A stretch of 64,000 nt of DNA, from the NCBI GenBank assembly GCA_964649715.1, contig CAZYTH010000003.1:4713-68712 (forward strand), written 5' to 3'. This document shows positions 9,935 to 40,027 of this stretch, one piece after another. Position numbers and translations under genes: made by a program. Source of the DNA: an uncultured Candidatus Saccharibacteria bacterium (GTDB lineage Bacteria > Patescibacteriota > Minisyncoccia > Phycocordibacterales > UBA12445). How positions within the stretch are numbered: the stretch's first letter is position 1; each line of letters starts with the position of its first letter. The notes under the pieces are model-generated. The model made no database searches, was not told where the DNA came from, and saw nothing but the letters and a program-made list of their open reading frames with translations.

Positions 9935-9938
9935 TTTT

Positions 9939-11119: not shown

Positions 11120-11121
11120 AT

Positions 11122-11355: not shown

Positions 11356-11364
11356 TAATATTTT

Positions 11365-11447
11365 GCCGCGGTGGCGGAATGGCAGACGCAATAGACTCAA
11401 AATCTATCGAGGGCAACCTCATGAGGGTTCGAGTCCCTCCCGCGGCA
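11365..11447 (+). tRNA. tRNA-Leu(CAA), class II with a long variable arm.
   Basis: Acceptor GCCGCGG/CCGCGGC, anticodon stem ATAGA/TCTAT with loop CTCAAAA, long variable arm, T-arm GAGGG-TTCGAGT-CCCTC and discriminator A. No encoded CCA. Confidence 0.9.
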
Positions 11448-11584
11448 CAACAAATCGCTGAAAAGCGATTTTTGTATACGCGGAGCAAGCAAACTTCTTT
11501 GCTTGCGAGGGGGACGAGAAGGGGTTGAGTATATTACGCCGAGCAATGCGAAGGCGGAATACGAAACCCGTACCGAATATGTAA

Positions 11585-11608
11585 TGTTCGAGTCCCTCCC
11601 GCGGCACA
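11585..11608 (+). repeat. direct repeat of the last 22-24 nt of tRNA-Leu (T-loop plus 3' acceptor), about 135 bp downstream of the tRNA. It has the form of an att-like remnant.
   Basis: GTTCGAGTCCCTCCCGCGGCACAA is identical to 11428-11450. Confidence 0.8.
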
Positions 11609-11924
11609 AAAACAAATGGACCGAATGTGAAAACATTCGGTGATTTTGTTTTGTAGGCGTCGGAGGGGCGAGAAAACCGGAAGCGGGTACCGTCGCCGAC
11701 GTAGCAAAGCGAAGTGGCGCACGGTCGCTGAGGCGTAGATCGAGAAATTTTTGTGTAACAAAAATATTCGTGATCGAATCCTCAACCAAAAAACGGGCAG
11801 GCCTCCAATGGCACAATAAAAAACATCTTTCTTTTAAATTTTGTAAACACTAAAAAATATCCGAGCAAGTGAAGTTTTTTTATGCTATTATTTAAATAAT
11901 TAAGAATTAAAAGATAATAAAAAA

Positions 11925-24419: not shown

Positions 24420-24734
24420 TTATGCTTTTGGTGCTTCTGCTGTTTCTGGTTTTGCAGCCCCAACCTTCTTCTTGGGTAAAACGTTCACTTTCTTATCATT
24501 CACTAATTTATTTTTTACCAATATATTGTGAACAGTTCCACTAGCCTTAGCACCAACAGACAGCCAATGACTTATTCTTTCTTTCTTTAATTGTGGCCTC
24601 CCCCCCCTTGCATCATAATGACCCAAGACCTCAGTAAACCTTCCACTCTTAGTGCTGTTTTTGGAGTCGGTAACAACTATCCTAAACGAAGGATCGTGCT
24701 TTTTCCCAACTCGTTGTAATCTAATCATTAACAT
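24420..24734 (-). CDS. rpsP: ribosomal protein bS16.
   Basis: MLMIRLQRVGKKHDPSFRIVVTDS. Confidence 0.9.
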   Translation of the reverse strand: MLMIRLQRVGKKHDPSFRIVVTDSKNSTKSGRFTEVLGHYDARGGRPQLKKERISHWLSVGAKASGTVHNILVKNKLVNDKKVNVLPKKKVGAAKPETAEAPKA

Positions 24735-24811
24735 AGCGGATATACTAACAAAACGTTATTTTTTAGTCAAATTGCCAAAAGACAGACTGAGCAATTATTG
24801 GTGACTTGATA

Positions 24812-24883
24812 TACACACAGAATGGATCGAACCTTCGACCTTTCCTAAGCGAACGGAACACTCTATCGCTGAACTATGTGTGC
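24812..24883 (-). pseudogene. degenerate tRNA-like sequence (72 nt) with several non-canonical features. It may be a tRNA pseudogene or an unusual tRNA.
   Basis: Folds as acceptor GCACACA/TGTGTGT, D-stem GTTC/GAGT with a loop lacking G18G19, anticodon stem TTCCG/AGGAA carrying a G·A mismatch and loop TTCGCTT with U at position 37, and T-arm GAAGG-TTCGATC-CATTC with a G·A mismatch. Confidence 0.3.
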
Positions 24884-25340
24884 AGACCCATAAATCATAG
24901 AGCAAAAAAACACAATAAAGAAAACCCGACAAAATGCCGGGTTTAAAAAAACAAAGACTACTCTTCCTTGAAATTATCAAAAAGGAAGCGTATGCCCTCG
25001 TCGGTGGCAAGAAGGCAAAGCCCCCTCGCGAGAAGAAAACTCTTAAGACCATGGATATCCTCCTTTCCTCGCCAACTATTGACGAGAGAACTAGCCCCAA
25101 ACACCCACCCAATCTCCAGACAAAGAACTTCTAGTCGATTGAGTTCCTTATTGAGTTCCCTGAAGAATCTCTCCTCCTTGTTCTGCATTCAAACACCCCC
25201 CTTCTTTTTCTGTTAATGTTCTAAATACGCCAGTCTTATACACCTAAAAAATTAAAAAGTCAAACAAAAAAAGAACAAACACCACAGAACATCAAAAATA
25301 TTGATTTTAATTTATCTTTTGGTTAGTATAGATATCTAAT

Positions 25341-25411
25341 GGGCCTATAGTATAGCGGTAGAACGCATCCATGGCATGGATGAGGTCGGGGTTCGACTCC
25401 CCGTAGGTCCA
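25341..25411 (+). tRNA. tRNA-Ala(GGC).
   Basis: Acceptor GGGCCTA/TAGGTCC with a G3·U70 pair, anticodon stem CATCC/GGATG with loop ATGGCAT, T-arm CGGGG-TTCGACT-CCCCG. Confidence 0.85.
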
Positions 25412-27087
25412 TAAATAGAGGCAAAACGGGTTTCAAGAAATTGAAATCCGTTTTTGCATTTAAAAATAAGGCTACTATCAGAAATAAAAAGTTCGGAAAA
25501 GATAGTTCTAGCAATTAGCTCTTTTTCTTGTAAATTTGCATTTAAGTAAAAGAATAGGCCATCTTTTATGAGTTCGGAAAGAATTACGACATCTCTAATA
25601 ACTTCCCCCATTGAAACGTCTGATGAAATCTCTTCGTTTTGTATTTCAAGAATCTCAGCATTAAGATTGTCCTCTTCTTCCATGAACGTTTTTGGAGAAT
25701 ATGCTCCCGTCATAAGCAAAGATAATTTATTAGTTCTCAGATATGATAATTTTTCTCTTATTCTTTTCTTTCTACCCTCTCCTTCTTCAATATTTTTAAT
25801 CCTTTTTTCTTCAAATAGCGAGACGTCTTCACTTGTCACAATATTTAAGTTGTTCTTTTCTTCGTCTCTCAACTTTAACATAGACATAAAATCCACAATT
25901 TTTTCTTCCAGAAAATTACCGTTAAAATTTTTCTTAGAATTTTTACAACCTTTAATGCATCTAGAACCATAATACTGGATACCCTTCTGAACATATGGTG
26001 TATATGCACGCCCACACTCAGAACAACGGGCAACGCCACGATAAGGTAACTCTAATTTATTTGTATAACGCAAGCTTACATTCTTCTTCGAGAGTCCTTT
26101 TTGAACTTTATTAAAAAGTTCCTCTGAAATTATGGCCTTGTGACTTTTGCTTGGTATATAAACACCATCACTATTTAAAGTTTTTCCTGTATAAAATTTA
26201 TTTCTGAGTATTTTTTGAACAAGAGTTGCAGTAATTGGTCTGGTGACTTTTTCGATCTTACTCTCGACATCAGTTTCTTCATTTTCCAATATCTCCCCCT
26301 CTGTTCTTCTTCTGCGCATTGGTACTGTCGTCATGCCATGTTCATTAGCCCACCGAGCCAAATCAGCAACGCTCCACTCACCGGTAGTATAATATTCGAA
26401 TAGTTTCTTTACAAAAGGACCCCGAACAGGATCTACCGGCTTATTTTCTGAATTTCCTTCATTTAAATAACCTATCGGAGCCCGATATGTGCAAATCCCG
26501 TCTGCTCGCATTTTTTGAGTAGTAAGCTTAATTTTCTCACTTGTTACCCGAGAATAATGTTCTGCAAACATGCCATCTATGTCCATATGGAGAGCACCCG
26601 AGCTACTTTTCTCATATTTTGCTTGAACAAAACGGAAATCGCATCCATTTTTAATCAACTTACGAATCAAAGTATCATCTGCTTTATTTCTACTGATGCG
26701 ATCCCAACAAAGACAGATAACACCCTTAAAAAATTTCTTACTCAAAAAATAAGTAAGTCTCTGAAATTTTGGTCGGTCTATTCGATATTGGACTAAACCC
26801 TCTTCTGTGAAATTGATATCTTCATCTTGTTTGTAACCAGATTGTTTCTCTGAAATTATTCCGTTATGACAAAAACCTTTTATATCAACGGGGGCAATGG
26901 GCAATTTTTCTTTCTTTGCAAACTTGGAATTTTCGAATTTCTGGTATTCCAAAGAATTTTTCTGTGAATCGGCCTCATCTGTACTCTTTCTGTTGTAAAT
27001 TAAATAACCATCACGATACTTACCGCTCAATATTTCCTTCTCGATATCTTTTTGTCTTTTGTTTATTTGTGTTTTATTTTTTGACAT
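25345..27087 (-). CDS. large serine recombinase (phage-integrase type). The ORF reads through the antisense of tRNA-Ala for its last ~24 codons.
   Basis: N-terminal resolvase domain with the catalytic Ser (YNRKSTDEADSQKNSLEYQ), a recombinase domain, a zinc ribbon (CSECGRAYTPY...C..GC) and a C-terminal coiled coil. Confidence 0.85.
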   Translation of the reverse strand: MSKNKTQINKRQKDIEKEILSGKYRDGYLIYNRKSTDEADSQKNSLEYQKFENSKFAKKEKLPIAPVDIKGFCHNGIISEKQSGYKQDEDINFTEEGLVQYRIDRPKFQRLTYFLSKKFFKGVICLCWDRISRNKADDTLIRKLIKNGCDFRFVQAKYEKSSSGALHMDIDGMFAEHYSRVTSEKIKLTTQKMRADGICTYRAPIGYLNEGNSENKPVDPVRGPFVKKLFEYYTTGEWSVADLARWANEHGMTTVPMRRRRTEGEILENEETDVESKIEKVTRPITATLVQKILRNKFYTGKTLNSDGVYIPSKSHKAIISEELFNKVQKGLSKKNVSLRYTNKLELPYRGVARCSECGRAYTPYVQKGIQYYGSRCIKGCKNSKKNFNGNFLEEKIVDFMSMLKLRDEEKNNLNIVTSEDVSLFEEKRIKNIEEGEGRKKRIREKLSYLRTNKLSLLMTGAYSPKTFMEEEDNLNAEILEIQNEEISSDVSMGEVIRDVVILSELIKDGLFFYLNANLQEKELIARTIFSELFISDSSLIFKCKNGFQFLETRFASIYGPTGSRTPTSSMPWMRSTAIL

Positions 27088-27447
27088 TGTTTTCTTTTTT
27101 AACTCGACTTTTTGGTATCTCGACGCCTTCAGAAATAAGTCTTTTGCGAATAATCATAAATATTTTACCAAGTTCTCTTAAAGAATTAACATTTTCTAAA
27201 TTAAGTGTGATATCTGGGCTATCAAAAACAATATCTAAATTTGGACGAATACTTGCAGTTACAGAGGGGTCTAAAAGCATCAAGGGAGCCTTTAAGGGAA
27301 CATTCTCTAATTTTTTTTTATTTTTTTTATACATTTTAACTCTTTGTTAAAAATTATTAAACTTAAACTTTAATTATATTTATCAGTTGATGGTACGAAA
27401 CCAGGATATCTTGAAAAAATGAAATTTCGGGACTTTTTATTGTATCC

Positions 27448-27720
27448 TCATAACTTCAAATCAAAAAACCTGGAGTGTTTCGCTGGTTCATCCCCTAATC
27501 TATAATATTTGTGAATTTTCACGCAATTATCACACACACTCCTAACAGGTTCATCGGCTTTCATCTGTGAATTAACCTGGAGTGCGTTAAGGCAATCAAA
27601 GCAAAACCTATTAGAACACTCAAAGCAGATATCCATGGGATTTTGATAATTTCTGGGACTTTTACACTTATGACATTTTTCTTTAAAATTCTTAAATTTA
27701 TTATTGTTACCATTTAACAT
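27448..27720 (-). CDS. small Cys-rich zinc-finger protein.
   Basis: CHKCKSP...CFECSNRFCFDC...CDNC. Confidence 0.4.
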   Translation of the reverse strand: MLNGNNNKFKNFKEKCHKCKSPRNYQNPMDICFECSNRFCFDCLNALQVNSQMKADEPVRSVCDNCVKIHKYYRLGDEPAKHSRFFDLKL

Positions 27721-29053
27721 GTCTTTTAAGCTTAGATGTGGACAAAATTTGAGGAGTTTTTCCTAAAGTTGAGGTTTTACTCATTAGGGAGTTTTTTGTC
27801 TCATTTTTAATAATAATTTTCCTACTTTTTTCTTTCATATTTTTAATTGTTTTATTTTTTCTTGTAAGAAGAACTAGCCTAAAAATACAAAGTAATATCC
27901 AAGAGATATTTCTAACGATTTTGAGGCTGACAACTCGCTATATATTTTCCATTCTGTTAAAATTAATTTTTAATGAAAAAAATAAAAATCACATTAATAT
28001 TTAAAGCTAAAATAAAAAATCTTAATGACGAGTTGCTAAAATGGTAAGTTGGCTAAATAATGCCTGAATCCTAAAAGCTTGAGTCTAATAGATTGAAAAT
28101 AAATGCTATTCTGCTATATGTGGTTTTCAAATTTCCTCTGATTTCAAATCAGTAACCTGAGTTTATCAAAGCCATAGAAAAATAAAAATAAAAACGTGGA
28201 TAACTTTAGTTTCAAATATTATTATGTTAAAAATAATTAATTGCTGGTTAGTCTACATAACATTTTTGCCATATTTCACGCAAAACATCTCTCTGAATTG
28301 ATATTTAAACCGAAACATAAGTCCACAAAATTGGGGTTTTTTGGCAATCCAGTGGTAAAATTTTTTCACAACACACTTGCTACAAAAAGTTAAGTATTTG
28401 AATTGGCTATTTTTTTTTAGACTATGTTAATATTAGAAGGTTGGTTCTCCATCTAAAAGATGGAGTTGAGACAAATAAAGGCTTTGACTTTGCCCAGCTA
28501 CCGAGGAAGAACAACTTTCTTGAAAAACGGTAAAAACCACCAAGGTGGAAAGGTGAAATAATAAAGTTTTTATATTTTGTTCTTTTATAAATAGGTTGGT
28601 TATTATCTAATCGCAAGAATACCAACCTCATGCACAGCTGAAGAGACGATTAGTTAGACGTGTTTTGTCGAACCTAGGAGGCCGTCAATACGTCTATAAA
28701 CAAAAGATCCATATTGGTATCGCAGATAACAGGTGCTCCGTCTGCGGGAGATACGAAAGCCAGTATGGAGATAAACCATCCACTTGGGATTGGTTAAGAC
28801 AACCGAGCATTGGGTTAACACCCAGACGTTAACAAACTGTGGTATCGTAAAATATTTACCACTGGAAACACCCGGATTTTTTTGAGTCACATTCTTTTCA
28901 ATCATATTAACCTGTAAAAGAAAGCGGATAAAAACAATTCTTCAGCCAAAAAGAACCGTGGGGGGCCCAGGCCAAACACCAGTTTTTATATCAGGACCAG
29001 TATGGTTTCAATAAACCAATTTGGTCCAAAATATAATATTCTGTTGTTTGGTT

Positions 29054-29088
29054 AAAAAAAGGAGGCCGGCCCGAAGGGGACGGCCTCC
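29054..29088 (-). terminator. strong intrinsic terminator on the minus strand inside the ORF-free region.
   Basis: GGAGGCCG-loop-CGGCCTCC followed by T7 on the minus strand. Confidence 0.6.
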
Positions 29089-29212
29089 TTGTAACTAGTT
29101 AATATTTTAAACAAAGTATTAACGTATTTTGCGAAATATTTTGTTCTTTGTGTTTAAAGTTTTTTTCAATAACATTTGATAAGAATGGTATCTGGTATCC
29201 TTTTGTTTTTTG

Positions 29213-29235
29213 GACCTTAATGGGTCCTTTTTTTG
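29213..29235 (+). terminator. intrinsic terminator on the plus strand.
   Basis: GGACC-ttaat-GGGTCC followed by TTTTTTT. Confidence 0.55.
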
Positions 29236-29502
29236 CTATTGACCCCGGCATCAGGCTGGTAGCAAGAAGATAACAAAAGTTTTTTGGGTCGCTGACAAGT
29301 TTTTTTATTTTTGTGTGTGAATATAATCAAAATATTGAAAGTCCTTTGAAATGCTGGCGAGATGGTCTGGGTGCAGAATTTTGTCCTCTATGGGGTCAAC
29401 TTATCCTCCCTCCCCCCTTTTTAGTGTTTTTAAAAAGAACATTAAAACGGGGCGAGAGGTTCGATAAGCCCTTAGATTATAAGAATTAAGTACACACTGC
29501 GA

Positions 29503-29670
29503 TGGCTAAAATAAAAGTCAAAACAGGTGGTGTCGCTCCCAATTCGGGGCAATATCAAGTTTCGGGAACGAAACACGAGATTACCCTGTCTAAAGGTGAG
29601 CGTGTTCCTCCTTATGGAGGAAAGGCAAAAGCTTTTGTTCTTGTCGATAAGACAAAACATAAGTAAGTAG
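29503..29670 (+). CDS. small (55 aa) basic protein of unknown function, below the ORF-track cutoff.
   Basis: ATG-initiated ORF MAKIKVKTGGVAPNSGQYQVSGTKHEITLSKGERVPPYGGKAKAFVLVDKTKHK. It sits immediately upstream of, and co-oriented with, the RNase H-like gene. Confidence 0.35.
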
Positions 29671-29724
29671 CCGATCACTGAACTTTTCTCGTCAGCATTT
29701 TAGGGGATTTTTTATTTTTTAAAC

Positions 29725-30519
29725 ATGTACGACCAAAATGCTGTAAAAATATATACAGATGGTTCTGCCAAGCCTAATCCAGGCAAGGGTGGTGTTGGTA
29801 TGGTTGTGGAGTTCCCAGACAATTTTAGCCTTGAAAATTTAGAATTAAATGAGGGTTATTTCATAAGCAATAATAATCGTATGGAATTGAGAGCGTGTAT
29901 ACATGCGCTTGAGTGGCTTTAGGGATATATATTCACCAGGGCCATTATCATAACCAATTCCGAATATGTCTGTTCAAATCACAAAAACGCTCCCTTTTGG
30001 AAAAAGAACCACTGGACCACCTCTGAGGGGAGGCCCTATGAAAATGTTGACCTTTGGGACACGTTCCTAAAAAACCGACAGAAAATAAGGTTTCCTGTCG
30101 AGTTGGTTTGGGAAAAGGGCAAAAAAAGGCCAATACTTATTCGCGTAGATGAACTTGCAAAAACGGGGGCCGATAGCCCGACAAAAATAGACCATGGTTT
30201 TCAACCTGGTAAATTTACCTCATCCAGAACACTGGGCGGAAAAACCGCCACGTTATATTCTTCGATGGGTGAGGAAATATTAATTCGTGTATATAAAAAA
30301 CGTATCTATGGCAAAAATGAAAACGCGATATATAAAATAACCTTCGATATTTATGATGAAATTAAGGGTATTTATACGGAAAAACGCTATGCTTATCTTA
30401 AGAATAATACCGTAGACCTAAAAAGAAATAATTGCTATCGCGTGGTATTTAATGACGATCCTAAGTTTCCGATGATTATTAAGGCGACAGAAATCGAGTA
30501 TCTGAAAAATAAAAACTGA
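29725..30519 (+). pseudogene. RNase HI-like gene with a C-terminal extension of about 110 aa. It is interrupted by a single in-frame TAG at 29920-29922, and catalytic residues are substituted.
   Basis: IYTDGSAKPNPGKGGVGMVV and NRMELRACIHALEWL match the RNase H N-terminus. After the TAG the same frame continues through IIITNSEYV...NVDLWDTFL...VDELAKTGA (Asp70 becomes Asn and the HxxH His is absent) into the 30103..30519 ORF. Confidence 0.6.
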
Positions 30520-30528
30520 GCCAGCACG

Positions 30529-31194
30529 CTACTTCTCAAAATTTATTCGCTTATAAATGGCCCTAGTGGTTTCCACATCTCTTTTGCAGTAGTCGCAAAT
30601 CTCTTTTACCTTGCCCGCTTTGTAGAAGTCATAGACTTGTGAACCATCTATTCCATCCTTTGGTGTAGGAATACCAAGCGCCAAGGCAACGTGCTCCAAT
30701 CCGGCCCCTTTTGTCTCTGTCCATTTGGACCATTCGTGCATAGTGTCGTATATAGGATCATGCCTATATCGAGCAAAATTAAGGTCTCTTGATGGTTTTA
30801 TACCGAGAACAATGGATCTCTGATACAGGAATTTAAAGTCGAAACCGAAGATATTGTGACCAATAAATAAATCTGCGTCTTTCACAAGATCCCAGAATTT
30901 TTGGAGTGTTTCCTTCTCGTTCTCTGGGTTACAGATAACTTCCGTCTCATCGTCATTTATTGCGTAAGCGATACAAAGAACACGGCCAAAGCCTCCATCG
31001 AAAGAGGTTCCTCTTACATAGTCATCAAATTTTGCCTCCTCCTTTTCTGGTAAATATTCCTCTACGACGACCTCCTCGGACATTTCTTTTCTTTTATTCT
31101 TCTTTTCTAATTTCTTTTGGAAGAGAAATCGGAGCGCCTCGTGCTTGCTCTCATCTGCCGGCAGTGTTTCTATATCAAAATATATTTTTTTCAT
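30529..31194 (-). CDS. DEDD-type 3'-5' exonuclease (RNase H-fold, PolB-exonuclease-like).
   Basis: YFDIETLP (Exo I), GHNIFGFDFKFL (Exo II) and YCKRDVETTRAIY (Exo III, Y-x3-D). Confidence 0.65.
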   Translation of the reverse strand: MKKIYFDIETLPADESKHEALRFLFQKKLEKKNKRKEMSEEVVVEEYLPEKEEAKFDDYVRGTSFDGGFGRVLCIAYAINDDETEVICNPENEKETLQKFWDLVKDADLFIGHNIFGFDFKFLYQRSIVLGIKPSRDLNFARYRHDPIYDTMHEWSKWTETKGAGLEHVALALGIPTPKDGIDGSQVYDFYKAGKVKEICDYCKRDVETTRAIYKRINFEK

Positions 31195-31336
31195 TTGTTA
31201 TTTTATTAAATTCCATTTATCAAGGAAATATCCCATTTCGTGATTTCTATTGCCAAGATATATTTTTTCATTTTAATTTTAATGCTAATAAATTACTTTT
31301 TTTATTATACGCCCATTGCGTAAATAATAAAAATAA

Positions 31337-31364
31337 AACAGGCCCGAGATGAGCCTGTTTTTTA
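31337..31364. terminator. hairpin terminator. An identical 26-nt copy occurs at 33340-33365.
   Basis: AACAGGCCCGAGATGAGCCTGTT followed by TTTTT. Confidence 0.55.
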
Positions 31365-31381
31365 GAAACTTGGTTTAAGAA

Positions 31382-31642
31382 TTAAAGAAACACTTCAATT
31401 GCACCCTCCCCTCCGTCCTGAATCTTGGATGGTCTGTATTTTATTCCATTCTTATTTAAAAAACTCTCCACAAAAGGTTTTAAGATTGGGCCATTTTCTC
31501 TGTAACTTGCCTTACCTGTAATAATTCTTATGTGTCTTGGTCTTTTATCCGCCAATAATTCATGAAGAACAATTTCTGCATCCCTTCTGGTGTGGCCATG
31601 AAAATCTATTTCCTCACTGGGGATTTGTTCGTATTTGTTCAT
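31382..31642 (-). CDS. Smr (small MutS-related) domain protein.
   Basis: IDFHGHTRRDAEIVLHELL...IRIITGKA matches the Smr pattern DLHG...A and ITGKG. Confidence 0.7.
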   Translation of the reverse strand: MNKYEQIPSEEIDFHGHTRRDAEIVLHELLADKRPRHIRIITGKASYRENGPILKPFVESFLNKNGIKYRPSKIQDGGEGAIEVFL

Positions 31643-31646
31643 GAAT

Positions 31647-32393
31647 TTATTTATTCACAGAAAACACTTCTCCATATTCAGTATTCAATTTTTCTGCAAA
31701 TTCGTATATTCGATTATATGACATGCCAAAAGAAACCGACTGAGGAATAACACAAAAAGAAGTTTTATCTGTCTTTGTAAAATACATTTGTCTTGTTATC
31801 CCATTGGGCGTTTTTCCAATTATTTCTGCCCAAGTTCCATCGTTTAAATATCTTAAGGAATAAAAAATAACCAAAACAGGAGCGTGCTTCTCTATTAAAT
31901 GTTTTAATTCTTGAATTCGCTTGGGTTTATAAGTAGTGAGATACTCCTTTCTGGAACTCAGCCCTTGCAATCCATATTCTCTATATAACCATGTTGACTC
32001 ATCGGCTTTTTTCGACGGTAATGGCATAAGCTCGATAGCGGCGCTTTCTTTTATTGCACTATCACCAAAGATTAGTCCTTGGTGTTCACGAATTTCCTGT
32101 TGAGATGGTATTCGGCGATTCTTTAAATATAGATAGAGAGCAATTGGATATCTCCATGTTGGTTGTACGGGAAAGGGTTCTTGAAACCACCTCATAAATT
32201 TCGGCAAATGAGATAAATCCTGACGTAAATCTACCATTGATTTTCCATCACAAGCAAGCATGAGATCTTCAAGTTCTGTTTCTGTAACGTCACCAAGACC
32301 CTCTTCCATTCCAATAAACCACACCTTTGCATCAAGGCTTCCATACCCCCAAAAGTTTTTTATTCTATTTTGTAAAATGTCTGGTGTGATCAT
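31647..32393 (-). CDS. hypothetical protein (248 aa), possibly a divergent uracil-DNA-glycosylase-superfamily fold. This is weak.
   Basis: WFIGMEEGLGD loosely resembles UDG motif A (GxxPG). It sits in an operon with Smr and SppA. Confidence 0.4.
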   Translation of the reverse strand: MITPDILQNRIKNFWGYGSLDAKVWFIGMEEGLGDVTETELEDLMLACDGKSMVDLRQDLSHLPKFMRWFQEPFPVQPTWRYPIALYLYLKNRRIPSQQEIREHQGLIFGDSAIKESAAIELMPLPSKKADESTWLYREYGLQGLSSRKEYLTTYKPKRIQELKHLIEKHAPVLVIFYSLRYLNDGTWAEIIGKTPNGITRQMYFTKTDKTSFCVIPQSVSFGMSYNRIYEFAEKLNTEYGEVFSVNK

Positions 32394-32482
32394 AAAATAT
32401 GTAGGTAATTAAGAATTTAATGTCGGCCATTCCAATAATGAAACTATATGAGATTCTACTTCTTTACTGTTCTGATCCAATA

Positions 32483-33301
32483 TTAATATTCGCAGACATT
32501 TATCTCTCCCATATCCACGCCCAGGATATCCGCTAAATATTCTTTAACTTCATATAGCCCTCCGATCTTGTCTATAAGGCCCGCCTCGATGGCTTTTGGA
32601 GGGATAATTGTTGATCCGTCAGCAAACTTGGCGACGTCTGAAATATCCAGTCCCCTGTTTGTGGCAATATCTTTAACCATAACTTCATGAAAATGTTCGA
32701 GGTCTTTCATTATCATTTGTCTTTCTGTATAAGTTAGAGGCCTGTCACCGTTAAACATGTCTTTATACTTACCTGATTGAAATTGATTGTAGTTGTATCC
32801 TTCTTTTTTGCTTTTCTCAACATCGTCAAAGAAAGATTGTATTATTGCAATAGAACCCAAGTCTGAAAATTCAGAAGCGAAAATTTTGTCTGCTCCAGTA
32901 GCAAGATGATAAGCGGCGGAGGTTCCTTGTTCTTTTATCAGTGCAACTGTTGGCTTTTTAACTCTTTTTAACGCTCTAGATATTTCTTGCCCAATCACTG
33001 GGCTTCCTCCTCCTGAATCTATCTCAATGATGATTGCCTCAACTTCTGGGTCTTCGTCTGCTTCTTCTATCAGGTCATAAATATCTCCAGCGACCGCTTC
33101 ATCTGTCCAGTCTTCGTTTCCCCCATTCTTATAACTTACGATCTCACCTCTTACTGGTATCTTTGCAACGTTGCAGTCACTGGAATAATCTTCCGGCTCA
33201 ATTATTACGTATAAAACAGAGACAAGAACTAAAAGGAGAAAGGACATTGCGACAGTGTCGAAGAATCTTCTCCATGTTATTTTTGAGAGGATGTTTTTCA
33301 T
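32483..33301 (-). CDS. sppA: signal peptide peptidase SppA (S49, 36K type).
   Basis: N-terminal transmembrane segment and EAIIIEIDSGGGSPVIGQEI...KPTVALIKEQGTSAAYHLATGADKIFA (Ser-Lys dyad region). Confidence 0.8.
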   Translation of the reverse strand: MKNILSKITWRRFFDTVAMSFLLLVLVSVLYVIIEPEDYSSDCNVAKIPVRGEIVSYKNGGNEDWTDEAVAGDIYDLIEEADEDPEVEAIIIEIDSGGGSPVIGQEISRALKRVKKPTVALIKEQGTSAAYHLATGADKIFASEFSDLGSIAIIQSFFDDVEKSKKEGYNYNQFQSGKYKDMFNGDRPLTYTERQMIMKDLEHFHEVMVKDIATNRGLDISDVAKFADGSTIIPPKAIEAGLIDKIGGLYEVKEYLADILGVDMGEINVCEY

Positions 33302-33341
33302 TTGATTATCAATTTAGCTTTTAAATTAAAATGATGCAAGA

Positions 33342-33364
33342 AACAGGCCCGAGATGAGCCTGTT
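33342..33364. repeat. second copy of the 31337 terminator hairpin, downstream of the 928-aa gene.
   Basis: AACAGGCCCGAGATGAGCCTGTT identical to the 31337 copy. The T-run is weak. Confidence 0.5.
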
Positions 33365-33384
33365 TTAACAAATCTATTTTAAAA

Positions 33385-36171
33385 TTAAAATCCAAACCAA
33401 GACCAGAAACGAGACCATACACTTTTCTTCACAACCGGAGGTTCTGTGTGTGTTGTGCTTGCGGTAAGTGTGGGCGTGGTTGTGGTACTAATAATTGGCA
33501 CAGGAGAGCCCGTTATCCAAGAGGCCAGACGACTAAACCAGGATAATTTCGATTGCTCCATTCGTGGAGGTGTCCTTTGGTCAGAAAATTCTTTATCTAA
33601 ATCTTTTGATTCAATAACGATCGATTCCTTAACAATAGACTCCTTCATTGGTTGAGCTTGCTGAGTTTGTTCTTCTGTTTTTTCCTGTACCTGAATAGCT
33701 TTTGGCTGTTCTACTACTTTCCCTGTAATTTGTTCTTTAGGGCTGGTAATTAATTCTCCTTTTTTATCTGTTTTAGCAATAAATAATTTTAGGGATTTAA
33801 GCTTATTCGCATCCATATTTTCTAAGGCTGAAAATTTAGAGTTAATATTGATCGGAATACTAGATAATGCACCCAAATTATTAAACCAATTATTTATTAC
33901 ATTCATAGATAATATTAACCCCATGGTATTATCTTCTCCAACATACCCACCCGAAGGTATTCCTATAAACTTACCGTTCTTTAAATAGGCGCCACCGCCA
34001 GAACTTCCGTGCTCTAAAATAGCAGTAGTTTTAAAATAATCTCCACTGTCGTCGATTCCACTAAAATCACCACTTGTGTACGTTAACTTTTTACCGAAAG
34101 CTGCAGGGTAACCGTAAGTTAAAATCTTTTCACCTAAAGCAATACTTATATTGCCCCTTGTGATATCAATGGGTGTAAAATTTATATTTCCGGAATTTCT
34201 AATTTTTAATAAAGCGATATCTTTATCCGGTGATGTCTTAACAACGTCAGCCACAAACCATCCATAGGGTTCATCGTCAAAATTGTTTATAAATCCAACA
34301 TAACAGCCTACGGTCTCAGAAATAACATGTTTATTGGTCAGAATAATTCCGATCGCATTAATTATCGTACCAGACCCCTGCGATGCAGATTGCGCATCAA
34401 CCGGACAAATAAGTTTTACTGTGGCCTTTAAAATCTTATCCTGGTTTACAACTTCTATAGACTCATCTGGTGGAGGTTGTGGCGGTCTATTTGGGGGTGT
34501 GCAGTATCTATCTGTAATGGGTGGTGCTGTTTGAACGTTAGGACAATCATAGGTTTTAGTACAAGTTCGGCTTTGTATTCCAGAAATAGAACATTCTCCC
34601 CAATAAGAACAGGTCCATTCATCAGCTGTACAAGATGGAATATAGGAACAAGATTGGGTCGTTATTGGCGAAGCAACTCCACCTTCACAATTTGATATCT
34701 TATTACATGTTCTTGATTGTGTTCTGTTTGCAGAACAAGCAGACCAACCACCACAGGACCAATCGCTAGAAGTACAAGGTGGCATATAAGTGCAATTCTG
34801 ACTTAAAATTGGACCACCACCAACACAACCATTCGGCAATGAAGAAATTATTGTTCTTGTTTGGGTTCCGTTAGAAGAACATGTGGACCATTCAGAATAT
34901 GTCCACGAAGTACATGTGGGTGGAATATATGTACAGTTTTGAATTATCACTGGCTCATATGTTCCGGTACAGATATCTGAATTTTTATTACATACTCTGG
35001 TTTGTTTACCACTAGGATTACACGCACCCCAAACACCGCAAGTATAATCATCAGCGTCACATGCTGGGCTACAAGATTGGGTTGTTGCCGGAGAGGGGGT
35101 ATCGATTAAAGAACAATCATTTGTCTTTGTGCATGTTCTATTCTGAGATCCACTGCGAGAGCAGGTGCTCCATGATTCGCATGTCCATGTGTCAGATATA
35201 CAGGCAGGGGTACATGCTTGGGTCGTAATTGGGGGAGGAGTTGTTATTCCAGGACAATCCAAAGACATGTAGCATGATCTTGTTTGCGAACCGTCTATTG
35301 AACATGAATTCCAATCATTACATATCCATGTATCAGCAGTACAAGTAGGAACATAGGTACAAGACTGCGTTGTGGCTGGTGATGGATCGTTTGTAAGCGG
35401 ACAATCATATGTCCTCGTGCATGTTCTGGTCTGGGTGCCATTAGACTGACATCCGGCCCAGCTTCCGCAAGACCAAGTATCAGCAGTACATTCTGGTGTG
35501 CAAGATTGAGTCGTTTCCGGCGACGGTGTATCTACCGCAGGACAATCTAATGCCTTGGTACAGGCTCTAGATTGATTACCGTACAGAGAACAAGAACTCC
35601 ATGACCCACAATCCCAAATATCTTGAGCGCAATGATCCTTAAGGAAAAAGCTACCCGATAGATAAGATGATGGCTGAGCGGTATTGTAACTCACCTCCCT
35701 ATAACAAGTATCTGTGGTGCATTTTTGTGCACAACTATCAACTTCACAAATTGGGGCCCTACCAAAGACTGTAGGAATTTCAATTTTCAGATTAACCGCC
35801 TTATTGTCGTAGCAAGATGGATCGGCGTATAATGAAGAAAAATAATTTAATGGGACTTTTAATATTATCTGGGAATCACTCCAAGAAATAACATTACTGT
35901 TAGATACTTCGGGAATTGAAGCGTTGACATAACTAACCCCGCAGCTATCGTTGATATACGCATACCCACTAACGTAACCCAACCCACTACTGTTGCGCTG
36001 AAAATGCGTAAAACGCCAAGAGCTATTAAAATTACCACCATTTATAGTAATGGTATCACCAGGAGAAATAATACTTGGGGTAATAGATGTAATAAAAGGC
36101 TCCCCGACTGCTAACGACGTGCCACCAAAAACGAAGAACAACGTAACCACAAACAACAGAATTTTTTTCAT
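33385..36171 (-). CDS. 928-aa secreted multidomain protein. It has an N-terminal IPT/TIG-like domain, eight tandem thrombospondin type-1-like Cys repeats, a trypsin-like (S1/Do-type) serine protease domain and a Thr-rich, Trp-rich C-terminal tail.
   Basis: Signal peptide. Repeats of about 47 aa follow the pattern W-x-C-x-x-W-S-x-C-S-x(3-4)-Q-(S/T)-R-x-C-T...DCP...TTQSC. Protease motifs: TNKHV (His), DIALLKI (Asp) and GSSGGGAY (Ser). Confidence 0.8.
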   Translation of the reverse strand: MKKILLFVVTLFFVFGGTSLAVGEPFITSITPSIISPGDTITINGGNFNSSWRFTHFQRNSSGLGYVSGYAYINDSCGVSYVNASIPEVSNSNVISWSDSQIILKVPLNYFSSLYADPSCYDNKAVNLKIEIPTVFGRAPICEVDSCAQKCTTDTCYREVSYNTAQPSSYLSGSFFLKDHCAQDIWDCGSWSSCSLYGNQSRACTKALDCPAVDTPSPETTQSCTPECTADTWSCGSWAGCQSNGTQTRTCTRTYDCPLTNDPSPATTQSCTYVPTCTADTWICNDWNSCSIDGSQTRSCYMSLDCPGITTPPPITTQACTPACISDTWTCESWSTCSRSGSQNRTCTKTNDCSLIDTPSPATTQSCSPACDADDYTCGVWGACNPSGKQTRVCNKNSDICTGTYEPVIIQNCTYIPPTCTSWTYSEWSTCSSNGTQTRTIISSLPNGCVGGGPILSQNCTYMPPCTSSDWSCGGWSACSANRTQSRTCNKISNCEGGVASPITTQSCSYIPSCTADEWTCSYWGECSISGIQSRTCTKTYDCPNVQTAPPITDRYCTPPNRPPQPPPDESIEVVNQDKILKATVKLICPVDAQSASQGSGTIINAIGIILTNKHVISETVGCYVGFINNFDDEPYGWFVADVVKTSPDKDIALLKIRNSGNINFTPIDITRGNISIALGEKILTYGYPAAFGKKLTYTSGDFSGIDDSGDYFKTTAILEHGSSGGGAYLKNGKFIGIPSGGYVGEDNTMGLILSMNVINNWFNNLGALSSIPININSKFSALENMDANKLKSLKLFIAKTDKKGELITSPKEQITGKVVEQPKAIQVQEKTEEQTQQAQPMKESIVKESIVIESKDLDKEFSDQRTPPRMEQSKLSWFSRLASWITGSPVPIISTTTTPTLTASTTHTEPPVVKKSVWSRFWSWFGF

Positions 36172-36288
36172 TTTTTTTTAACTACTAACAATTTAATTAT
36201 TTTTTAATTATACTCCTATCAAAATAATAATAAAAATAAAGGTGGCCCGAAAATGGACCACCGTTTATTATCCCCCATCATCCCCTCT

Positions 36289-36504
36289 CTACACCTCAAA
36301 AGACTGTATATACTCCTCCGCCTCAGGATAAGACAGGGATTGAATGTATGAGAGACTTTGTTCCCTGTCTTCTTGCTCGTGGACATTTCTATAGATGAGT
36401 TCTGTGAGTTTTCGTAACTGTTCCCTCGTAATACCTCTTTCATTTTCTTCTCGTAGATATTTGTTGTGGTAGTAGACCCTACTATCTAGCGTATTTTTAG
36501 ACAT
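36289..36504 (-). CDS. small hypothetical protein.
   Basis: ORF only. Acidic with a coiled-coil-like sequence. Confidence 0.3.
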   Translation of the reverse strand: MSKNTLDSRVYYHNKYLREENERGITREQLRKLTELIYRNVHEQEDREQSLSYIQSLSYPEAEEYIQSFEV

Positions 36505-36528
36505 ATATATTTTTTAAGTTTGTAATAT

Positions 36529-37197
36529 CTAACGAAGTCCAATGTAAGATGAAATGGAATCACTAGCTTCAGCTTTCGTCATGTGAGGGATCTCTTCTAA
36601 AAGTTTCTGCTTTTCCTCGTCGTGATAAACATGACGCTTTATGAGAACGGCAAGAAGTTCTTTTTGTCTTTCTGTAATGGGAACTTCTTTTGGGGTATTT
36701 TCAGCCTCAGAGGAAACATTACTTGTCGGCATATCCTCAAGATCCTGAGTGAATATATCAGAAAGGCCCGTCGTGCGTATCACGGCGCTAACAAAGGCGC
36801 GTTTTTCTGCGAGCTTAATTGTTGTATTGGGATTGTTTTGATGGTCTTTTAGTTGTGATGATCCTCGGCCCTCGCCAACTATTTTATTATCTCGACCCAA
36901 CAGACACTTATAGGCAACTAAACCCTCCACACCCGGAAAACATGCCATTGTATCCGAGTCTTTCTCGAAACGAGACACGAGTCCCCAGACCGAGGCCAAC
37001 TTCTCGGCCCCTCCCTTTGCTAAACTCTTCTTACCTTTAATAACGAAATAGTCTTGGCCCTCTCGGAGTAATGGCATTACTTGCGAGATAAAGTAAGATC
37101 GTCTCAAAAGTAAATCATCCACCCCCTGTTTAAAGCTCTGGAGCGCTTCTGTATTTCCAAGGCGAACCATACCTTTATCTATTGTTTCTGTATTCAT
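36529..37197 (-). CDS. putative phage single-strand annealing protein (ERF-like). This is weak.
   Basis: GGAEKLASVWGLVSRFEKDSD resembles the ERF core (SSYARKYcLnGLFGIDD). Context includes an exonuclease and a recombinase. Confidence 0.35.
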   Translation of the reverse strand: MNTETIDKGMVRLGNTEALQSFKQGVDDLLLRRSYFISQVMPLLREGQDYFVIKGKKSLAKGGAEKLASVWGLVSRFEKDSDTMACFPGVEGLVAYKCLLGRDNKIVGEGRGSSQLKDHQNNPNTTIKLAEKRAFVSAVIRTTGLSDIFTQDLEDMPTSNVSSEAENTPKEVPITERQKELLAVLIKRHVYHDEEKQKLLEEIPHMTKAEASDSISSYIGLR

Positions 37198-37207
37198 TTG
37201 TTTTTAA

Positions 37208-37426
37208 TTATCTTCTTTTAATAACTACGGCCCCGTCTGAATAATCGATATCTATCTTCTGGCCCACACGGAAGCCAAATCGATAAAGGATGCTATTAGC
37301 TATCCTTATCATTGGCTTCTGGATGCCAGATTTTAGGCGACAATATTTTCCGGTCGCATAATTGACTGTCATATGTTTTCTCATTTGACTGGCAAAGGGG
37401 TAACTTGTAGATAATAGAAAAGGCAT
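37208..37426 (-). CDS. AbrB/MazE-like swapped-hairpin DNA-binding protein. The true start may be the internal MIRIAN.
   Basis: C-terminal GQKIDIDYSDGAVVIKRR matches the SpoVT/AbrB pattern. Confidence 0.45.
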   Translation of the reverse strand: MPFLLSTSYPFASQMRKHMTVNYATGKYCRLKSGIQKPMIRIANSILYRFGFRVGQKIDIDYSDGAVVIKRR

Positions 37427-37683
37427 ATCTTGCGAGGAAAACGTTTGATAACTTTCCCGTCCTTATCTTTCTTCTCAATAATGACAGTAGATCTGATAAC
37501 TCCTTTTTCACCCTTGCGAACTTTGTAACCGTTAGCCAGCCATTTCTCATATGTAAGGCAATTGGTGTAAGGGTCAAATATTTTTCCCTCTTCCTCTCCC
37601 CATATGGAAATTATCTGCTGACGCACATCTTCATAGGTCTCTTTTGATCCTGTATAATTGGATTTTTCTTTTATTTCCAACAT
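37381..37683 (-). CDS. DUF1738/ArdC-N-like ssDNA-binding domain protein.
   Basis: YTNCLTYEKWLANGYKVRKGEKGVI resembles the ArdC_N W.T..QA...G..VRKGEKG motif. Confidence 0.4.
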   Translation of the reverse strand: MLEIKEKSNYTGSKETYEDVRQQIISIWGEEEGKIFDPYTNCLTYEKWLANGYKVRKGEKGVIRSTVIIEKKDKDGKVIKRFPRKICLFYYLQVTPLPVK

Positions 37684-37948
37684 ATTTTTTCTTCTAAACG
37701 AATAATAAAAAACCAGTGACTAGCTGGCTTGGACATAACATCCGAGAAAAGGGTGATAATCATAAAACCAAAAAGTAATGATGATGTAGGGAAAATAAAA
37801 GAAGGAAGTAGCTATATTCGTCTGTTTCTAAATTGGTCAGGGGGGGTTGTTTCATTTGGGACCCCCAGACGACAAAAGACACTGTGGGTAAGGAACTTAT
37901 CTCTGTTTTTTATGCTTTTTAAAAGTTGGACTATTGTAAAATGTATGT

Positions 37949-38518
37949 ATGGATAGAATATTAGTTGAAAGCTGTTTTTCGCTTGATATAAGCCAGTTTA
38001 AGGGAGATATTATGCGCTTTAAGAGCTCATGTGAAAGTGTGGCTGGACTATATGCCACAAAGCATGATGAAAAAGAGATAAAGATAGATTATGTCATTGA
38101 AGATGATGGACACGATGGGATAATCCGGTTATCGATTAATGGTGCCAGTTCGCAGGGCATTGTGCTCTGTGACAAGGTGCTGACTTATGGGAGTAGAACA
38201 TATTTTACCTGTGAATGTGGTTCTTTGTTCTCAAGGCTGTATATGGTGCCAAATAGCACAGCCTTAAAATGCCGAAAATGCCACCATTTGAAATACGAGA
38301 TAAATTCATTCAATAGGAATAGCAAACATGGGAAACTTTTCCTAGCTATGCACTTTGCGCTTAAAGCCACAAAGGAAAGAGAGACTGTGAAAAGAATGTT
38401 TATTAATGGGCGTTATACAAAAGCTTTTATTCGTAGCCTAAGAACAGCTAACAAAGCTGGGTGGACAGGTTACAGTAGGGAGGCCAGGAGGCTTCTGAGG
38501 GCTATGTGGTTTACGTAG
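37949..38518 (+). CDS. zinc-ribbon hypothetical protein.
   Basis: CDKV...CECG...CRKCHH. Confidence 0.4.
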   Translation: MDRILVESCFSLDISQFKGDIMRFKSSCESVAGLYATKHDEKEIKIDYVIEDDGHDGIIRLSINGASSQGIVLCDKVLTYGSRTYFTCECGSLFSRLYMVPNSTALKCRKCHHLKYEINSFNRNSKHGKLFLAMHFALKATKERETVKRMFINGRYTKAFIRSLRTANKAGWTGYSREARRLLRAMWFT

Positions 38519-38887
38519 AGGGTTTTTATGTAGCACAGAGCATTTTACACAGGGTTCAGTGCACAGGGCGAGGAGCACGGAATACAGGGCACAGGGCATA
38601 GAGCATAGAATTCCGTAAATGGTTTGAGTGGGGATGTAGAGACCCTTCTTAAAATTAAATCTTGCCCTGACGATACTGACGATGTTTTTTGAATATTTAT
38701 ACTAAAGAAAGGAGGTGTTTTATTTCTTTTTTGGTTAATTGTGGGGGGGGTAGCTTCCCGAAAAGATTACTATCTAATGATTTTAACTGTTGAATTTTCA
38801 AAAATTTGCTTCAATTCTTTAATGCTTAATTTAATAGAATCAGAGTGCTTACAAAGTTCTGAAATCCATTTTTCTAGTCCACAAAAA

Positions 38888-40027
38888 TTATCTTATCACC
38901 CCTCCGCCTAAACATATTTCTCCGTCATAAAGCACAAGGGATTGTCCCGAGGCAATAGACTCTTCCGGCTCATCGAAAATAATTCTCGCTTTCTTTGTTC
39001 GAGAATGAACTTCGCTCAAAATACATGGTTTCAAATCTTCCCGATACCTTATTCGTGCTGAATATTTTTTATTCGAATCAGGAAACTCTCCTTTTATCCA
39101 GCTAACATTCTCTATCTCTATTTCGGTTCTTGAAGAAACTTCTTCTTTTTTATTATGAGAAACAACTAATATATTTTTCTTTATGTTCTTATCTACAATA
39201 TAATATGGCGCATTGTCTACACCATCTGGCGAATTTTTTGTGATACCAAAACCATGCCTCTCTCCTATTGAATAAAAAGGAGATCCATTGTGTTCACCAA
39301 TAATTTCCCCCGCTTCGTTCAAAACCTTGCCCTTTTTAAATTTTATATATCTCTTCAAAAATTCCTTCGTATCTATCTTGCCCAAAAAACAAAGGCCCTG
39401 ACTGTCTTTCTTGCTAGCTGTCGGCAAGCCAAATTTTTCTGCCAGTCTTCTGACCTCGCTTTTTTCCAAATACCCGACAGGAAACAAAGTTTTTGATAAC
39501 TGCTTTTGTGTAAGTGTCCACAGAAAGTAAGATTGATCTTTGTTCTTGTCTTCTCCTGCAAGCAAGTTATATTCTAATTTTAAATTTTTATTTGAATTTT
39601 TGATTTTTGATTTTTGATTTTTGATTTCACAGACACGCGCGTAATGTCCCGTTGCAACAAAATCGGCCCCGTTCCTTATCGCCCAATCAAAAAAAGAACC
39701 AAATTTAACCTTCTTGTTACACATGACATCTGGATTTGGAATCCTGCCAGCCTTATATTCTGATATCATATAATCAACGACGCCTTTCTTATATTCCTTT
39801 TCAAGATTTATAGTAATGAAAGGTATCTGAAGGACCGCAGCACACCTCATCGCATCTCTTCTCTCTTCTTTCCAGCCACAAGGAAGCCATTCTGGTGACC
39901 AGACTTTTATAAAAACCCCCGTCACTTCATAGCCTAATTTTTTAAGTAATGCAGCGGAAACAGAAGAATCTACACCGCCAGACATTCCAACGAAAACTCG
40001 ACCTTTGTTTGCTATTGTTTTGTTCAT
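38888..40027 (-). CDS. mnmA: tRNA 2-thiouridylase MnmA, with a low-complexity insert encoded by a 7-nt microsatellite.
   Basis: PP-loop SGGVDSS, catalytic Cys residues and a C-terminal barrel. Insert KNQKSKIKNSNKN lies at 39594-39628. Confidence 0.9.
   Translation of the reverse strand: MNKTIANKGRVFVGMSGGVDSSVSAALLKKLGYEVTGVFIKVWSPEWLPCGWKEERRDAMRCAAVLQIPFITINLEKEYKKGVVDYMISEYKAGRIPNPDVMCNKKVKFGSFFDWAIRNGADFVATGHYARVCEIKNQKSKIKNSNKNLKLEYNLLAGEDKNKDQSYFLWTLTQKQLSKTLFPVGYLEKSEVRRLAEKFGLPTASKKDSQGLCFLGKIDTKEFLKRYIKFKKGKVLNEAGEIIGEHNGSPFYSIGERHGFGITKNSPDGVDNAPYYIVDKNIKKNILVVSHNKKEEVSSRTEIEIENVSWIKGEFPDSNKKYSARIRYREDLKPCILSEVHSRTKKARIIFDEPEESIASGQSLVLYDGEICLGGGVIR
39594..39628. repeat. microsatellite (gattttt)x4.5 inside the mnmA coding sequence.
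   Basis: gaatttttgatttttgatttttgatttttgatttc. Confidence 0.85.

Follow-up and report, generated by a model that had tools for sequence, protein, structure and literature searches.

Organization of the locus

The stretch of DNA analysed here (hereafter the window) comprises 64,000 nucleotides (nt) from an uncultured Candidatus Saccharibacteria bacterium (contig CAZYTH010000003.1, positions 4,713 to 68,712). Within it the gene for a large serine recombinase, the integrase, runs into a tRNA-Ala(GGC) gene from the opposite strand, and between the 3' end of this tRNA and the stop codon of mnmA lies an integrated element of 13,470 bp (25412-38881). A preliminary description, made without database searches, had proposed an integrated element beside tRNA-Ala(GGC) and a large serine recombinase reading through the antisense of the tRNA. 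Both proposals stand: the split integrase gene, both junctions and related loci agree on the element, and the recombinase has Resolvase and Recombinase domains with its last ~22 codons in the tRNA. The flanking housekeeping genes were also correctly named, with rpsP (24420-24734) and a KH-domain gene to the left and a complete mnmA (38888-40027) to the right. The limits then given, 25341-38860, rightly placed tRNA-Ala on the left and mnmA on the right, but the right end falls 21 nt short of the end of the attachment (att) site core at 38881. The features on which the argument depends are as follows.

25341-25411, plus strand: host tRNA-Ala(GGC) gene (ARAGORN; Rfam, 57.1 bits)
25407-25411: core of the left attachment site (attL), GTCCA, with host DNA to the left and element DNA to the right (junction comparison)
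25345-27087, minus strand: gene for the large serine recombinase (integrase), of which the integrated form has 580 aa (Pfam, family alignment, homologue model)
27074-27334, minus strand: c1, 86 aa, with a stop codon that overlaps the integrase start by 14 nt
37949-38518, plus strand: c2, 189 aa, of zinc-ribbon type with four invariant Cys
38770-38880, minus strand: displaced native 3' end of the integrase gene (the P' arm of attP), 36 codons, GLEKWISELCKHSDSIKLSIKELKQIFENSTVKIIR, then TAG
38877-38881: core of the right attachment site (attR), GTCCA, separated by caaaaa (6 nt) from the stop codon of mnmA (38888-38890)

The integrase gene is split

Residues 1-558 of the integrase are encoded by the element. 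The stop codon is situated within the tRNA, 4 nt from its 5' terminus, and the last ~22 codons (the GPTGSRTPTSSMPWMRSTAIL region) are therefore antisense tRNA-Ala. An alignment of the integrase family reveals two kinds of C-terminus following a conserved ...NRFxxxCDPT: GNRTP-like tails, which are the T-arm of a tRNA read backwards, and a conserved tail of the form xWLSELLxL...I..SLDEL.... The integrase of the window carries the first kind, and the second is found at the other end of the element. A regular-expression search of the window for the family tail returned one match, at 38880-38770. Independently, a hidden Markov model (HMM) of the tail gave a single match in the window, at 38788-38877, with an E value of 4.8e-12, a figure that is partly circular because the model was built from 22 native tails together with the window remnant itself. 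The displaced tail lies on the same strand as the integrase and directly adjoins the stop codon of mnmA. Joined to it, the native integrase has 594 codons, of which the last 36 are lost, and 22 tRNA-antisense codons gained, upon insertion.

Attachment sites and probable mode of insertion

The split gene allowed both ends of the element to be located. Searches of the window for direct and inverted repeats did not reveal the attachment sites, whose core measures only 5 nt; the preliminary description had anticipated that the cores would be short and hard to see. GTCCA is the sole block common to the two junctions (attL, ...ccccgtagGTCCAtaaatagagg; attR, ...ttttctaGTCCAcaaaaattatcTTA). At attL it corresponds to the last four nucleotides of the acceptor stem plus the discriminator base, that is, the final 5 nt of tRNA-Ala(GGC), which is intact after insertion; repeat searches and junction comparison detected no repeat of the tRNA beyond this core.

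Swapping the arms on either side of the core rebuilds both parental sites. The first product, attP, contains an open integrase gene that ends ...RFASIYGLEKWISELCKH...IIR* and aligns with the family tail (predicted attP junction, CTCTATTTATGGACTAGAAAAATGGATTTC). The second, attB, consists of the 3' end of tRNA-Ala(GGC), the six nucleotides caaaaa and the mnmA stop codon (predicted attB, CCCCGTAGGTCCACAAAAATTATCTTATCAC; predicted tRNA-mnmA junction of the empty site, ...GTAGGTCCACAAAAATTATCTTA). On comparison of the sequences, the caaaaa between the attR core and the mnmA stop codon reads as the former 3' flank of the tRNA. Within family tails the motif TGG-nTT-TCn-GAA is kept even at synonymous positions and, judged by this pattern, is likely to be part of the attP site. 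A search for dyad symmetry of attP around the core found the conserved motifs placed asymmetrically, by ~8-10 nt, and we claim no half-site model. The predicted attP has no exact match in IMG/VR.

On this evidence we consider it highly probable that 25412-38881 is an integrative element of a Paceibacteria-like member of the Patescibacteria, inserted by its own serine recombinase, through an attP situated in the integrase gene and an attB in tRNA-Ala. The element would have entered by site-specific recombination between attP, within the terminal ~110 nt of the integrase gene, and attB, at the extreme 3' end of tRNA-Ala(GGC), a gene that initially would have been separated by 6 nt from the stop codon of the convergent mnmA. 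A crossover within the 5-bp core GTCCA would leave the tRNA whole and generate no long direct repeat. The insertion would cut the integrase gene, leaving 558 native codons extended by 22 antisense-tRNA codons, with the native 36-codon tail 13.5 kb away, beside mnmA. Excision, by recombination of attL with attR, would produce a circle and would probably be aided by c1.

A family of integrases, many of which end in tRNA genes

A protein search with the integrase returned more than 860 homologues (E <= 1e-10). The best 120 of these are 54-61% identical over 91-99% of their length and measure 532-607 aa, mostly 555-600; the tail is of the tRNA type in at least 70 of these 120 cluster representatives and native in 38. 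The nearest homologue with genomic context likewise ends in an antisense tRNA, in this case tRNA-Glu. For a comparison of loci we took 80 from metagenomes and two found earlier; one metagenome locus duplicated an earlier contig, leaving 81, of which 74 have a readable gene end. In 43 of the 74 the integrase gene runs into an antisense tRNA, stopping inside it in 41 and reading through in two. The targets are Glu-CTC (22 loci), Glu-TTC (13), Ala-TGC (4), Leu (3) and Arg-CCT (1). The native tail is kept in 27 of the 74, without a tRNA nearby.

A detached tail on the same strand was found 7.3-9.7 kb upstream of the integrase gene in nine further loci. For six of these both attP and attB could be reconstructed, with cores of 4-11 nt that are always positioned at the tRNA acceptor end or discriminator base. 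Since insertion splits the integrase gene, both ends of any member of the family can be read from sequence.

Three contigs bear on the free form. The first (L073; 11,834 bp) has a native tail, and a 127-bp terminal direct repeat marks it as a closed circle of 11.7 kb with an intact attP. Its nucleotide homology to the integrated element of L067 (89%), and to those of L090, L077, L079 and L083, ends at 7451-7456, inside the core GTGACCCC. In the two others (L107 and L139) the sequence opens at an attP-type junction and continues across the element into attL; free or tandem copies must therefore have been present in those samples.

Additional integrase-tail remnants accompany a single integrase in four loci (L077, 342-425 and 3752-3829; L116, 125-175 and 673-723; L132, 3189-3275; L141, 10803-10892), which is suggestive of repeated insertion at the same tRNA, in succession or in tandem. 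In two loci at tRNA-Ala(TGC) (L111, 1937-2133; L114, 3376-3530) the integrase reading frame crosses the whole antisense tRNA and continues for ~27-41 codons. Among the native-tail integrases, those of L056 (on a contig of 788 kb), L112 (128 kb), L066, L085, L119 and others have no tRNA within 10 kb and adjoin a divergent helix-turn-helix protein and a ~170-aa protein.

Genes of the replication type are present in many relatives, either Prim-Pol with PriCT_1 and AAA_25 (L093) or a ~460-aa ATPase with Walker A and B motifs together with a DUF5659 protein. The ATPase family (c4) occurs in 17 loci, and its profile has no match among PDB sequences. Well-delimited relatives measure 7-10 kb and the family as a whole 7-13.5 kb, the copy in the window being the largest. 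We read the family, which is confined to Patescibacteria, as small, integrative, plasmid-like elements, because relatives carry replication-type genes and no virion, conjugation or defence genes were found in the cargo ORFs scanned; that the relatives replicate as small plasmids we infer from the same genes.

Class and structure of the integrase

The integrase matches Resolvase (PF00239, E 2e-14, residues 30-197) and Recombinase (PF07508, E 8e-12), and weakly Zn_ribbon_recom (PF13408; 18.7 bits, below the cut-off of 25.3). R33, S35 and D37 are invariant both in 20 and in 53 aligned homologues, as are four zinc-ribbon Cys (355, 358, 377 and 381) in the integrase alignment. An AlphaFold 2 model of a homologue with a native tail (P0015) has a mean predicted local distance difference test score (pLDDT) of 78.6 and shows, in order, a catalytic domain, a recombinase domain, a beta ribbon (strands at 347-383), two long antiparallel helices spanning 402-510 (402-446 and 459-510) and a small alpha/beta unit. 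It closes with a low-confidence linker at 549-557, which coincides with the position of the DNA crossover, and a C-terminal helix at 555-581 (pLDDT 76-86); in this homologue the tail is thus predicted to be an amphipathic helix behind a flexible linker.

Foldseek placed the model with the SPbeta, phiC31, LI and Bxb1 integrases (E 1.6e-16 to 1e-5), and its 22 best PDB matches, all with E <= 0.001, are large serine integrases without exception. By sequence the enzyme is distant from these integrases. The integrase found no match among PDB sequences with phmmer, and the profile of its family found TP901-1 only (E 0.0025); no match above 27% identity was present among 50,697 GenBank phage records and 72,556 records of plasmids, and no relative above 25% in IMG/VR. 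The best NCBIfam match is XisF, at 67 bits far under the cut-off of 375. On its domains, the fold modelled for a homologue and its hybrid att sites with a short core, the enzyme is one of the large serine recombinases, with catalysis predicted.

Beyond the putative attP motif, the tail retains hydrophobic residues at intervals that fit a helix, with free variation of third bases, a pattern that indicates selection on the tail at the level of the protein. One could imagine that the exchange of tails switches the integrase between two forms of the protein, which would determine in what direction the reaction runs. The integrase made by the free circle would then have the conserved C-terminal amphipathic helix and be suited to insertion (attP x attB); in the inserted copy the helix would be replaced by an arbitrary peptide from the tRNA antisense strand, and this version would either be competent for excision (attL x attR) with the co-translated c1, or be locked. 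We put this forward as a speculation that is probably wrong, albeit one worth stating.

Conserved partner genes

The most conserved partner of the integrase is c1, a homologue of which abuts or overlaps the start of the integrase gene in 60 of the 81 loci. The protein has no match in Pfam, PHROG, NCBIfam or PDB sequences, and its AlphaFold 2 model consists of a disordered stretch (residues 1-37) and one confident helix (46-68). The second partner, c2, has homologues in 25 loci (the window included), which are ~200 aa in length and usually lie ~250 nt upstream of the integrase gene; C88, C90, C108 and C111 are invariant in the alignment, and neither Pfam nor PDB sequences contain a match. In the window c2 is located at the far end, and in the circular form would converge on the integrase tail. 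Between c2 and the integrase tail, near attR, a 28-bp unit occurs twice in tandem (CAGGGCACAGGGCAAAGAGCACAGAATA; 38557-38611) and could be a protein-binding site.

Cargo, and the kind of element it implies

The remainder of the element is occupied by the following.

27448-27720, minus strand: Cys-rich zinc-ribbon protein, 90 aa (weak FYVE and Zn_ribbon_Nudix matches)
27721-29500: AT-rich stretch without a credible open reading frame (ORF), with a few strong local hairpins, e.g., 29058-29092
29502-29666, plus strand: small YjzC-like ORF, 54 aa (Pfam YjzC, E 7e-4, below cut-off)
29725-30519, plus strand: RNase H-like gene (Pfam RNase_H, E 2e-11, on the N-terminal piece)
30529-31194, minus strand: DEDD 3'-5' exonuclease, kin to PolB exonuclease domains (DNA_pol_B_exo2, PF10108, E 4e-18; PHROG 403, E 2e-23)
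31382-33301, minus strand: block of Smr (86 aa), a 248-aa protein and an S49/SppA protease (272 aa) (Pfam)
33385-36171, minus strand: 928-aa secreted protein with a signal peptide, Cys-rich repeats of ~47 aa and a trypsin/HtrA-like domain (Trypsin_2, E 1e-17)
36529-37683, minus strand: three small genes, for a 222-aa protein, a 72-aa SymE/AbrB-like protein and a 100-aa ArdC-N-like protein

The preliminary description fared well for the DEDD exonuclease, Smr (31382-31642), SppA and the RNase H pseudogene, all of which have Pfam matches. The membrane-anchored Peptidase_S49/SppA protein (32483-33301) also matches NCBIfam SppA_dom (E 3.5e-42). The RNase H-like gene occupies a single frame interrupted by one in-frame TAG at 29920-29922; the third catalytic Asp, in the ITDS motif, is replaced by Asn (ITNS), and there is a C-terminal extension of 138 aa. 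It is probably a pseudogene. Other assignments were modified by the searches. The 928-aa protein does have the trypsin domain ascribed to it, but its repeats, described as TSP1, gave no Pfam match to that family even at E<=5; a Cys motif, W-x-C-x2-W-x2-C-S-x3-G-x-Q-x-R-x-C, recurs at least five times at a spacing of 47-49 aa. The 222-aa protein, called ERF-like, matches nothing in Pfam, NCBIfam or PADLOC, its one match being to PHROG 10048, a family of unknown function. The ArdC-N-like label survives marginally (22.8 bits against a cut-off of 22.6), and the AbrB-like match of the 72-aa protein falls below cut-off (E 0.0015).

Some of the cargo has counterparts in relatives: an S49 homologue, 37.5% identical, is present in one locus (L078), 4.9 kb upstream of the integrase gene, and proteins with Cys repeats or trypsin-like domains are carried by two others (L054 and L080). 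We infer that the cargo, namely the secreted S49 and trypsin-like proteases, the DEDD exonuclease and Smr, is accessory. Two identical 26-nt hairpins (AAACAGGCCCGAGATGAGCCTGTTTT; 31336-31361 and 33341-33366, plus strand) bracket the block of Smr, 248-aa protein and SppA; none would be expected by chance, and the window contains no third copy.

Serine integrases are typical of temperate phages, and the element might therefore be a prophage that uses its integrase as do phiC31, Bxb1 and SPbeta. The DEDD exonuclease matches PHROGs of phage DNA polymerases, the 222-aa protein matches a PHROG, and proteases of the S49/ClpP-like kind can serve in head maturation (there is a weak match to NF045542, 30 bits against a cut-off of 120). 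Set against this is the gene content: scans with Pfam (element ORFs of >=60 aa) and with PHROGs (ten ORFs) turned up none of the families for capsid, portal, terminase, tail or lysis proteins. A tailed phage of 13.5 kb would be very small, the well-delimited relatives of the element are smaller still, the integrase has no close relative in IMG/VR (at most 25%) or among GenBank phages (at most 27%), and the circular relative, L073, has no virion genes as cargo but a methyltransferase and an 867-aa protein. We regard a prophage as very unlikely.

An integrative conjugative or mobilizable element is less probable again, as is an element of the 'skin' type, which is excised during development to restore a gene (by SpoIVCA or XisF); together we give these almost no credence. 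XisF is the best NCBIfam match of the integrase, at the sub-threshold score given above, and ArdC-N-like proteins are common on conjugative plasmids. Families of relaxases, coupling proteins or type IV secretion were not detected, however, by the Pfam and NCBIfam scans of element ORFs, and no host gene is interrupted, the tRNA being intact and mnmA complete. Insertion at four kinds of tRNA in many genomes is the behaviour of a mobile element and not of a fixed developmental switch. PADLOC recognized no defence system in the element, its matches being to a generic protease domain only.

Related genomes and the present state of the element

The collections searched contain no sibling genome. MnmA of the window is at most 65% identical to that of any species-representative genome, the best being metagenome-assembled genomes of the Paceibacteria/Nomurabacteria-like group of Patescibacteria, to which the window also belongs, with a gene order that differs; the nearest MnmA proteins in the protein database are 67-74% identical, and look-ups of the exact integrase, S16 and MnmA proteins returned no sibling with identical proteins. 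Three contigs of genus-level relatives in which mnmA is 67-70% identical (L144, L145 and L147) share RNase R-PPIase-fmt-def-priA-mnmA as one flank and rpsP-KH-(L32)-NusB/NUDIX as the second, and retain tRNA-Ala(GGC) between these conserved flanks. In L147 the 3' flank of the uninterrupted tRNA is CAAAAT, as compared with CAAAAA after the attR core of the window. The preliminary description would have been contradicted by the same gene order without a recombinase or by genes of the interval conserved as core; the three contigs contain no homologue of any window gene from 25345-38880, and the comparison did not refute it. In two of these contigs (L144 and L145) a 2.6-kb block (9141-11732) is positioned exactly as is the element of the window, between the mnmA stop codon and the 3' end of tRNA-Ala(GGC). 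It encodes a 110-aa protein, HIT, Hypoth_Ymh and an HNH nuclease, with neither a recombinase nor a tail remnant.

Several observations weigh against an element that inserted, and can still move, in the manner we propose. No true empty site, with tRNA-Ala directly before mnmA, is present among the nearest genomes (67-74% in MnmA); the rpsP-mnmA interval of relatives is variable, with 3.5-6 kb of unrelated genes, and is therefore not a clean empty site. By sequence the crossover is resolved to the 5 bp of GTCCA and not to a dinucleotide. About one third of the family has a native tail, in some cases on very long contigs with no tRNA near, from which it follows that a native tail does not always denote a free circle. 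The role of c1, a candidate directionality or regulatory factor, is a guess. Finally, the copy in the window has no recognizable replicase, unlike its relatives, and the RNase H pseudogene and ~1.75 kb without ORFs mean that it is possibly immobile today.

These last points raise the possibility of a dead remnant, inserted in the same way and now a fixed island that can neither excise nor replicate. The case for it comprises the missing replicase, the RNase H gene with its in-frame stop and Asp-to-Asn replacement, the 1.75 kb without ORFs or conservation, and the loss from the integrase of the conserved C-terminal helix. Yet the integrase ORF is full length and has all residues that are invariant in the family, the 36-codon tail is still open and recognizable by the HMM, c1 and c2 are intact and the two cores are identical; in addition, related elements of the same integrated layout coexist with attP-type junctions. 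A dead remnant deserves to be taken seriously, although we judge it the less likely outcome. Given the absence of replication genes and the presence of a pseudogene, the copy in the window may be non-autonomous or decaying, while its origin through insertion by its own integrase is the explanation we favour.

The stretch of 1.75 kb was described earlier as free of ORFs, which it is, and as structured, which holds for local hairpins and not broadly: z-scores of folding fall below -5 at 28950-29170 and 29475-29624 and range from -3.6 to +1.3 up to 28950. The stretch matches no Rfam family at the gathering threshold or at E<=1, resembles neither any of 148 loci nor the remainder of the window and contains no protein remnant of the genes of relatives. 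An origin or decayed genes are both possible.

Relation to known systems

The domain order of the integrase (catalytic Ser domain, recombinase domain, zinc ribbon with long coiled coil) is that of phiC31, Bxb1, SPbeta SprA, A118/LI, TP901-1, XisF and Ccr, and large serine integrases likewise recombine short att sites with a tiny identical core and no long repeat. The enzyme of the window differs from these in its very low identity to them, in the placement of attP in its own coding region, in the choice of a tRNA 3' end as target and in the exchange of a C-terminal helix.

The closest concept is that of the SSV-type 'suicidal' integrases of viruses and plasmids of hyperthermophilic archaea, tyrosine recombinases whose site lies within the integrase ORF, whose target is a tRNA and whose gene is partitioned to both ends of the inserted element (PMC7253208). 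The element of the window shares an attP inside the integrase ORF, a tRNA target and a gene split by insertion; it differs in that the enzyme is a serine recombinase of Patescibacteria and in that 36 of 594 codons are replaced, whereas the SSV gene is disrupted. Islander-type islands are described as using tyrosine integrases and restoring the tRNA that they split, with a displaced tRNA fragment left at the far end (PMC4383910). As in the element of the window, insertion into a tRNA gene leaves a working tRNA and the integrase gene adjoins it; the contrasts are a serine recombinase, 5 shared nucleotides and a far-end fragment derived from the integrase gene instead of the tRNA.

A third parallel concerns the altered protein. 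In both the window element and integration-dependent immunity, insertion changes the C-terminus of an element-encoded protein, so that free and integrated versions differ. Some mycobacteriophages reportedly have attP inside the repressor gene and thereby couple immunity to integration (Broussard et al. 2013), their integrase being a tyrosine recombinase. In the window the protein that changes is the recombinase itself and not a repressor, and any regulatory consequence is hypothesized. The literature that we searched contains no serine integrase with attP inside its own gene and no such elements of Patescibacteria, an absence that is not proof of novelty.

The main interest of the locus is not its cargo, but the fact that attP falls within the integrase gene, at its 3' end, in a large family restricted to Patescibacteria. 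The Patescibacteria (candidate phyla radiation) account for a large share of bacterial diversity, and to our knowledge almost no mobile elements have been described from them and few genetic tools exist. The split-gene rule provides a simple means of mapping elements, attP and attB in metagenomes. Serine integrases are important for genome engineering, for which a clade with many natural specificities for tRNA ends would be of interest, as would an exchangeable helix, if directionality is affected by it. Were the speculation on the tail exchange true, it would amount to a serine integrase with a directionality switch of its own, widespread in Patescibacteria, and would also provide genetic tools for this phylum with a first natural backbone in the form of an integrative plasmid. 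The cargo (secreted proteases, restriction-modification genes) suggests that the elements move surface and defence traits between epibiotic cells.

The surroundings of tRNA-Ala(GGC)

A strong hairpin followed by a U-run (25421-25457; dG, the folding free energy, -22.5 kcal/mol; z -5.25) starts 10 nt past the 3' end of tRNA-Ala(GGC), on the strand of the tRNA and within the coding region of the integrase, and could act as a terminator of the tRNA transcript once the element is inserted. The broader idea, that elements of this family supply their target tRNA with a terminator, was rejected: the corresponding hairpins of 44 relatives are weak (median z -1.7), and the U-run amounts to Lys-Lys-Gly codons read backwards.

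A second tRNA-Ala gene, with anticodon CGC and a rather low Rfam score (38.9 bits), lies on the opposite strand at 24811-24884, to the left of tRNA-Ala(GGC) at a distance of 456 nt. The spacer between the two tRNA genes contains short overlapping ORFs only.

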